Part shown: piece after piece, positions 32,363-32,545 of the stretch
How the letters are laid out: each line of letters begins with the position of its first letter
Numbering within the stretch: position 1 is the first letter of the stretch
Assembly: GCF_003334815.1 (NCBI RefSeq)
Contig: NZ_QOWO01000007.1
Direction: 5' to 3' (one strand)
DNA: 64,000 nucleotides
DNA from: Escherichia coli
GTDB lineage: Bacteria; Pseudomonadota; Gammaproteobacteria; Enterobacterales; Enterobacteriaceae
Translations under genes and position numbers: made by a program
Notes under the pieces: model-generated
Seen by the model: the letters and a program-made list of their open reading frames with translations, nothing else
The model's database searches: none
Told to the model about the DNA's origin: nothing

Positions 32363-32545
32363 TCATCGATCTTGTATCACTTTTTTGCCGGAAGTTGTTT
32401 GCATTTTATTAGTTGGATAGGGTTTGTGGATTTTTGCTGGCTGACGGGCAAATAAAGTTTGTTTAATGGTTTGCTTATCTGCCAGTTGATTAATCACATG
32501 GCGGGCTATCTGACCGCCAGCACCAAGAATCAGTACATTTTTCAT
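32363..32545 (-). pseudogene. ymjC: Truncated N-terminal remnant of an NAD(P)-binding Rossmann-fold protein (60 codons)
   Basis: ORF 32363..32545: MKNVLILGAGGQIARHV... glycine-rich dinucleotide-binding loop, then stops after 60 aa with no further domain. Confidence 0.6.
32377..32407. repeat. Copy A of a 31-bp element shared with the mppA upstream region
   Basis: TCACTTTTTTGCCGGAAGTTGTTTGCATTTT; 29 of 31 identical to 34823-34853; encodes the C-terminal tail of ymjC on the other strand. Confidence 0.6.

Follow-up and report, generated by a model that had tools for sequence, protein, structure and literature searches.

The ymjC gene of Escherichia coli K-12 is very probably a deletion remnant of a short-chain dehydrogenase gene in an eroding cassette

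The window, by which we mean the whole 64-kb stretch of DNA analysed, is E. coli K-12 DNA whose position 32363 corresponds to position 1390680 of NC_000913.3, and the genes at the locus follow each other in the order tyrR, tpx, ycjG, mpaA, ymjC, ymjD, ycjY, pgrR and mppA. The 60-codon open reading frame that the first-pass annotation had marked at 32363-32545 proved to be exactly the CDS ymjC/b4525 of NC_000913.3 (1390680-1390862), known in UniProt as Protein YmjC (YMJC_ECOLI) and translated in the reading-frame listing as MKNVLILGAGGQIARHVINQLADKQTIKQTLFARQPAKIHKPYPTNKMQTTSGKKVIQDR; locus, coordinates and sequence are the same, and there is no difference between the two. The features needed for the argument are as follows.

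31553-32281, minus strand: mpaA, the native gene downstream of the stub
32363-32545, minus strand: the ymjC open reading frame (b4525 of K-12), 60 codons and a TGA stop, from the list of reading frames and the coordinate match to the reference
32363-32407, minus strand: codons 47-60 (KMQTTSGKKVIQDR) and the stop codon, native non-coding DNA upstream of mpaA, from alignments
32370-32406, minus strand: the mpaA-side copy of a duplicated target segment of about 37 bp (AAATGCAAACAACTTCCGGCAAAAAAGTGATACAAGA)
32407-32408, no strand: the junction of a 665-bp deletion, from alignments; the same junction is found in 2,292 genomes
32408-32545, minus strand: the part derived from a short-chain dehydrogenase (SDR)/NAD(P)H-binding gene, 138 nt or codons 1-46, including the glycine-rich GAGGQIA motif, from alignments, the PGAP feature and PF13460 on the full-length allele
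32551-32616, minus strand: ymjD (b4673), 21 codons, from alignments with the complete cassette and the reference record
32616-33536, minus strand: ycjY, the first alpha/beta hydrolase gene of the cassette, intact
33674-34573, plus strand: pgrR (ycjZ), the divergently transcribed LysR regulator gene of the cassette (sources include PMC5934670)
32407-34815, no strand: the eroded 2.4-kb remnant of a cassette (pgrR-ycjY-hydrolase2-SDR), from comparison with the complete O26 form
34816-34852, minus strand: the mppA-side copy of the 37-bp segment, identical at 33-34 of 37 positions

On the far side of mpaA, this gene (minus strand) and ycjG (plus strand) converge, with 3' ends overlapping by 26 nt (window 31553-31578), an overlap found in the annotation of every E. 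coli, Citrobacter and Salmonella locus examined.

The first 46 residues of YmjC are identical (100% amino acid identity) to residues 1-46 of a 212-residue protein that other E. coli encode at this locus, and the same genes flank the stub and the full-length SDR gene, ycjY/ymjD on one side and mpaA on the other. The intact gene, 639 nt in strain PS_131_S11, encodes a product that matches PF13460 (NAD_binding_10) over residues 8-189 and model positions 1-184 (E 3e-54) and is nearly identical to the solved structure PDB 3QVO, an 'NmrA family protein' (E 3e-138) whose source organism we take to be Shigella flexneri. The glycine-rich dinucleotide-binding motif is present in the stub as VLILGAGGQIA (residues 4-14), placed after the first beta strand, and in the full-length allele this stretch aligns to the start of PF13460; the Rossmann-type N-terminus that had been read from the letters is thus the real beginning of an SDR protein and not a chance resemblance to a motif. 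The rest of the fold is gone: a complete Rossmann domain of about 180 residues is absent from the stub, in which residues 8-46 cover only about 39 of the 184 PF13460 positions. Set against WP_000800177.1 and 3QVO, the SDR family oxidoreductase with which it shares its genomic position, the window copy is without residues 47-212, amounting to about 80% of the PF13460 domain and to everything past the second beta strand, and the stub alone gives only subthreshold matches to NCBIfam (E 0.002-0.01). From the share of the domain that is left, we infer that the stub would be unable to form a nucleotide-binding enzyme. The grouping of the 60-residue stub with MpaA in protein clustering was taken as an artefact.

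When K-12 is aligned with full-length alleles, pairwise or three-way, the two differ by a single clean gap of 665 bp (positions 3294-3958 of the full-length locus L002), and the removed DNA comprises codons 47-212 and the stop codon (501 nt together) with 164 nt of downstream non-coding DNA. As the SDR stop codon went with the deleted DNA, the open frame runs on for 14 codons (KMQTTSGKKVIQDR) into native spacer DNA until it meets a TGA, 81 nt upstream of the mpaA start. In full-length alleles, the DNA encoding this tail is found past the SDR stop codon, at a distance of 164-182 bp, and it is homologous to the mppA-mpaA spacer of Citrobacter and Salmonella. The lesion thus has defined breakpoints, and an intact homologue occupies the same locus both in conspecifics and in outgroups. 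All this makes it very probable that ymjC is a non-functional remnant, a pseudogene, of a 212-codon gene for an NAD(P)H-binding atypical short-chain dehydrogenase, cut by the 665-bp deletion. The stub status of ymjC is already on record: in other K-12 assemblies, PGAP treats the opening 138 nt as a pseudogene, under the label 'NAD-dependent dehydratase; incomplete; missing C-terminus', while the MG1655 reference record still enters ymjC as a normal CDS, complete with protein accession, and ymjD as an ordinary protein-coding gene. To this record the present work contributes precise breakpoints, allele frequencies, the source of the 14-residue tail and a history of the cassette.

The first-pass annotation had described the gene as decapitated by deletion or recombination and its last 14 residues as encoded by a 31-bp repeat, and had proposed a search for full-length homologues and a DNA alignment across the breakpoint. 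The search finds homologues of 212 residues both within E. coli, in about 2,900 genomes, and outside it, in more than 80 species, and the alignment shows one clean 665-bp deletion with its junction at 32407|32408. Truncation by deletion therefore stands, although it is the head, with the start codon, ribosome-binding region and glycine-rich motif, that is kept, and the body and tail that are lost. The origin of the last residues was also essentially correct, the repeat copy at 32370-32406 covering 37 of the 45 nt that encode residues 47-60 and the stop, but the repeat itself measures about 37 bp, not 31. In substance the earlier reading was right, and the finding is supported as a known, ordinary pseudogene.

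Given the repeat at its edge, the deletion might be thought to result from recombination between the two repeat copies. Such an event would excise the whole cassette, as in the empty-site genomes described below, and the left breakpoint lies inside the SDR gene without similarity to the repeat. The junction, flanked by ...CCAACTAAT|AGCAAG... and ...CATCAAT(G/A)|AAAATGC..., has a microhomology of 0-1 nt against the six full-length alleles inspected; a parental allele with perfect microhomology (...CATCAATAAAATGC..., with one base fewer before the repeat and a 4-nt AATA) was not among these six. We therefore read the 665-bp loss, from the alignments, as an illegitimate rather than a repeat-mediated deletion: it was not brought about by the repeat, at whose edge it happens to end. 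The distal end lies 0-5 nt from the right boundary of the cassette, which is why the YmjC tail comes to be encoded by the repeat copy; that the deletion should end at this boundary we treat as chance or as unexplained. The junction also creates a promoter-like site (a -10-like TAAAAT with TCCACA 16 nt upstream; 32430-32403, minus strand), but such matches occur at background rate (7 found vs 6.5 expected), and the site is probably meaningless. An Rfam search of 31500-35200 found no structured RNA.

A truncated gene may still encode something useful, and the reading in which the 60-residue YmjC is a functional small protein kept by selection, such as a Rossmann beta-alpha-beta peptide acting as a modulator of MpaA or some other enzyme, deserves attention since the gene has a CDS in NC_000913.3 and a UniProt entry, could be expressed, and lies within an expressed operon (PMC5934670; PMC3946193). 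With its start codon kept and its position inside the PgrR-controlled ycjY operon, the stub is, we infer, probably transcribed and may be translated. To look at its conservation, we took 25 deletion alleles at even steps through the ranking: compared with K-12, 21 were identical, one had a single mismatch and three had one extra base. The high identity of the sampled alleles speaks for a functional product, but it reflects recent common descent and does not by itself separate neutrality from constraint. In the two extra-base alleles that were read (L091 and L092), the added base falls in the A-run of the tail and shifts the frame, and both also carry N3K, the only coding change seen in the stub among the sampled deletion alleles; this change is non-synonymous, whereas the differences that intact alleles show over these 46 codons are synonymous. 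The first-pass annotation had named conservation of the 60-residue product as such as what would speak against a stub, and the evenly taken sample, with its frameshifting 1-nt insertion and N3K (3/25), does not display it. A tail frameshifted in about 12% of the sampled deletion alleles, together with N3K, points to relaxed constraint, in what is a small sample of a young allele.

The tail moreover derives from non-coding DNA, and more than half of E. coli genomes have either the full gene or none. The few screens in which ymjC turns up weigh little on the side of function: deletion of ymjC in K-12 gave a two-fold shift of the trimethoprim MIC that was not reversed by complementation (PMC8355897), and the TraDIS signal at ymjC, there a 138-bp gene, was called stochastic by its authors (PMC8803141). 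A pan-genome study associated ymjC with acid resistance (PMC9602453), and this association reflects the presence/absence polymorphism of the gene. We consider a selected small protein very improbable and retain the pseudogene reading. A shorter conserved reading frame inside the repeat (MQTTSGKKVIQDR) was set aside, its substitutions being largely non-synonymous and a properly spaced Shine-Dalgarno sequence lacking; ATG-initiated frames of 10-16 codons occur at the repeat in Citrobacter, Salmonella and Pseudocitrobacter as well.

The repeat tells more about the arrival of the genes than about their loss. The segments 32370-32411 and 34816-34857 are 83% identical over 42 nt, with a core of 30 nt at 93%; the pair is the only significant self-match in the 64-kb window (E 6e-8) and encloses pgrR, ycjY, ymjD and ymjC together. 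Citrobacter, Pseudocitrobacter and Salmonella have mppA and mpaA as divergent neighbours, with a spacer of 176-190 bp between them that holds one repeat copy, and the same empty site, with a 182-bp spacer and a single copy, is found in strain E57 and 191 other E. coli genomes (e.g., ST648). In cassette-bearing E. coli, the left half of the spacer and the 37-bp segment stand next to mppA, and the same segment and the right half stand next to mpaA; in the complete O26 form, the insert measures 4,008 bp, counted from the first base of one repeat copy to that of the other. Since the segment is single in empty sites and present at both ends of the insert, the repeat is best read as a duplication of the insertion target, or as an att-like junction repeat. 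We reject the idea that it is part of a longer duplication or a mobile element, as the similarity ends at about 37 bp even in undeleted alleles. The insert resembles small genomic islets with target-site direct repeats in having empty sites in relatives, a flanking repeat of about 37 bp derived from the target, a lower GC content (44.6% vs 50.6% for the window) and a cassette also found in unrelated taxa. Unlike them, it has no integrase, transposase or tRNA gene in or beside its 4 kb, where the annotated genes of the complete form are pgrR, two hydrolase genes and the SDR gene; terminal inverted repeats are absent, and the non-coding flanks of the cassette match nothing in the fetched loci.

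Several further observations concern the surroundings of the insert. A promoter-like site for mppA, TTTGCA-18-AATAAT (window 34844-34873, plus strand), places its -35 element within the repeat copy on the mppA side and its -10 element in a strongly conserved block, GAAACAAATAATTAC, and may explain the upkeep of that copy. In the O26 genome, the non-coding left flank of the cassette, between pgrR and mppA, contains a 31-codon fragment that RefSeq names 'epoxyqueuosine reductase QueH' (positions 910-1002 of locus L003; window about 34671-34763, plus strand); an NCBIfam search gave no match in support of this identity, and the fragment could be a trace of the donor genomic context. In Salmonella (L096, positions 1-1101), a different LysR gene and a gene for a 309-residue NmrA-family protein, unrelated to the E. 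coli cassette, lie past the 3' end of mppA, and the neighbourhood of this gene seems to collect regulator-plus-oxidoreductase pairs.

The neighbouring ymjD has a comparable origin. In the O26 strain RM8426, a 933-nt gene for a second alpha/beta hydrolase begins at the ycjY stop codon, and this second hydrolase is present in all outgroup cassettes examined; ymjD joins 55 nt from the beginning of the 310-codon gene in frame to 11 nt from its end, and was formed by an 867-bp in-frame deletion with its junction at 32561|32562 that K-12 and PS_131_S11 have in common. Like ymjC, ymjD (b4673) is thus a deletion remnant from the same cassette in the same lineage; the two differ in that ymjD is a head-to-tail fusion inside one gene (867 bp lost) that stays in frame, whereas ymjC is a head joined to non-coding DNA. 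Strains with the complete cassette also have 12 extra bases (ATGAGAAATATT) directly upstream of the SDR start codon (window 32546-32552; L003 3995-4006), which provide an alternative in-frame ATG and a 216-residue product; members of 216 residues are found in the protein cluster.

The direction of these changes is given by other bacteria. In a scan of one genome per species, full-length SDR relatives were found in more than 80 species, and cassette homologues are known from more than 10 genera. The intact order LysR-ycjY-hydrolase2-SDR is found in Pseudocitrobacter, Afipia, Mesorhizobium, Hyphomicrobium, Stenotrophomonas, Burkholderiaceae (Paraburkholderia and Caballeronia) and Achromobacter (L005-L016), and is thus kept across alpha-, beta- and gammaproteobacteria. 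In these outgroup cassettes, the LysR protein is 36-87% identical to PgrR, the YcjY homologue 69-92% (84% in Afipia) and the homologue of the second hydrolase 56-85%; at the DNA level, the E. coli insert is 79% identical to the Pseudocitrobacter cassette over 3.6 kb. None of the outgroup cassette loci examined has mpaA, ycjG or mppA nearby. With the full-length gene and the same neighbours in outgroups, it follows that the long form is ancestral and that the four genes travel as a cassette. The opposite polarity, in which the short form came first and a 665-bp insertion gave rise to the 212-codon gene of other strains, can draw on the bare presence/absence polymorphism and on nothing more; distant Proteobacteria have the full-length protein at 60-83% amino acid identity with the same neighbours in the same order, and an insertion could not have recreated a complete PF13460 domain with a solved structure. 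We give this alternative practically no credence, and treat loss from a long ancestral gene as the direction of change.

Within E. coli, 5,417 of 5,426 complete genomes gave a match to a 501-nt probe spanning the locus, many of the matches being split by an extra 665 bp or so annotated as 'SDR family oxidoreductase'. The frequencies of the alleles among these complete genomes are as follows.

K-12 junction present: 2,292 of 5,426 (42%)
665-bp segment present: 2,901 of 5,426 (about 53%)
Second alpha/beta hydrolase gene between ycjY and the SDR gene: 1,272 of 5,426
Cassette entirely absent: 192 of 5,426

The 3,922 genomes with probe coverage of at least 80% consist of the approximately 2,292 of K-12 type and approximately 1,629 with ymjD and an intact SDR gene, and the counts fit a nested history in which the complete cassette would first have lost the second hydrolase and then the SDR gene. 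On this evidence, a cassette of about 4 kb, with pgrR (divergent), ycjY, the second alpha/beta hydrolase gene and, last, the SDR gene, reached E. coli and entered the ancestral mppA-mpaA intergenic spacer, where it is bracketed by a duplication of about 37 bp of that spacer; in one lineage, the 867-bp in-frame deletion shrank the second hydrolase gene to ymjD, and on the ymjD background, a single 665-bp non-homologous deletion took codons 47-212 of the SDR gene, its stop and 164 bp at the end of the cassette. Independent hits on the SDR gene are also seen: DETEC-P881 (L004) has a 569-bp deletion in it, strain 492 an IS5 insertion and JNEC-KY173 an 81-bp deletion at the 3' end; the second hydrolase gene is frameshifted in O157:H7 and TB06052. 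Taken together, these alleles show that the cassette is eroding repeatedly in E. coli. Once its partner hydrolase was gone, the SDR gene was probably no longer needed, and this would account for the independent lesions that it has suffered repeatedly.

The deletion may have had consequences beyond the SDR gene. Beginning 20 nt after the stop codon of the intact SDR gene (L002 3814-3838; between window positions 32407 and 32408 if it were present) is a hairpin of 11 pairs with a folding energy of -17.7 kcal/mol (z = -3.45). The hairpin is terminator-like, with a weak U-tract (UUUAUUAAAC) and an activity that is predicted only, and the K-12 deletion takes it out. Without it, transcription from the PgrR-controlled ycjY promoter should run on more readily into mpaA, and the two should be more tightly coupled. 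In the K-12 literature, ycjY-ymjDC(-mpaA) is given as one operon in the PgrR regulon (PMC5934670; PMC3946193), and one may ask whether the deletion was adaptive, fusing mpaA to the PgrR-controlled ycjY transcript with the stub as a by-product of a selected lesion. Besides the operon itself, this would accord with the deleted segment having held the sole terminator-like hairpin on the way from the ycjY promoter to mpaA, with a deletion that ends flush with the native upstream region of mpaA and leaves it intact, and with an allele frequency of 42%. The weakness of the U-tract argues the other way, and so do other lesions at the locus: the IS5 insertion and the 569-bp deletion, the latter ending exactly at the first base of the hairpin, both keep it, which suggests that what recurs is simple loss of function. 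The high frequency is equally explained by clonal descent in phylogroups A and B1. Selected rewiring is thus an unlikely account of the deletion, if not a negligible one, and ymjC remains for us a remnant of a lost gene.

For biology at large, a textbook case of the stepwise erosion of an acquired gene cassette carries little weight. Its value is mainly for annotation: ymjC and ymjD are listed as ordinary genes in MG1655 though they are deletion remnants, and 'ymjC, putative oxidoreductase' continues to appear among the hits of pan-genome and knockout screens. The wider implication concerns PgrR, whose native role, judged from the company it keeps across genomes, is probably the control of the hydrolase/SDR cassette rather than of peptidoglycan recycling. 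We suggest, very tentatively and with a good deal of doubt, that the 'peptidoglycan-recycling' regulon of K-12 PgrR is partly an accident of genome history, in that a foreign pgrR cassette landed between mppA and mpaA and tight co-transcription of ycjY and mpaA arose only after the 665-bp deletion had removed the 3' hairpin. If this were true, the control of mpaA by PgrR would depend on the allele, being strong in strains of the K-12 type and weak in the approximately 53% of E. coli with an intact SDR gene. Since pgrR and ycjY are members of a mobile cassette that in other bacteria has no connection with mpaA, caution is called for in regarding PgrR as a dedicated regulator of peptidoglycan recycling.
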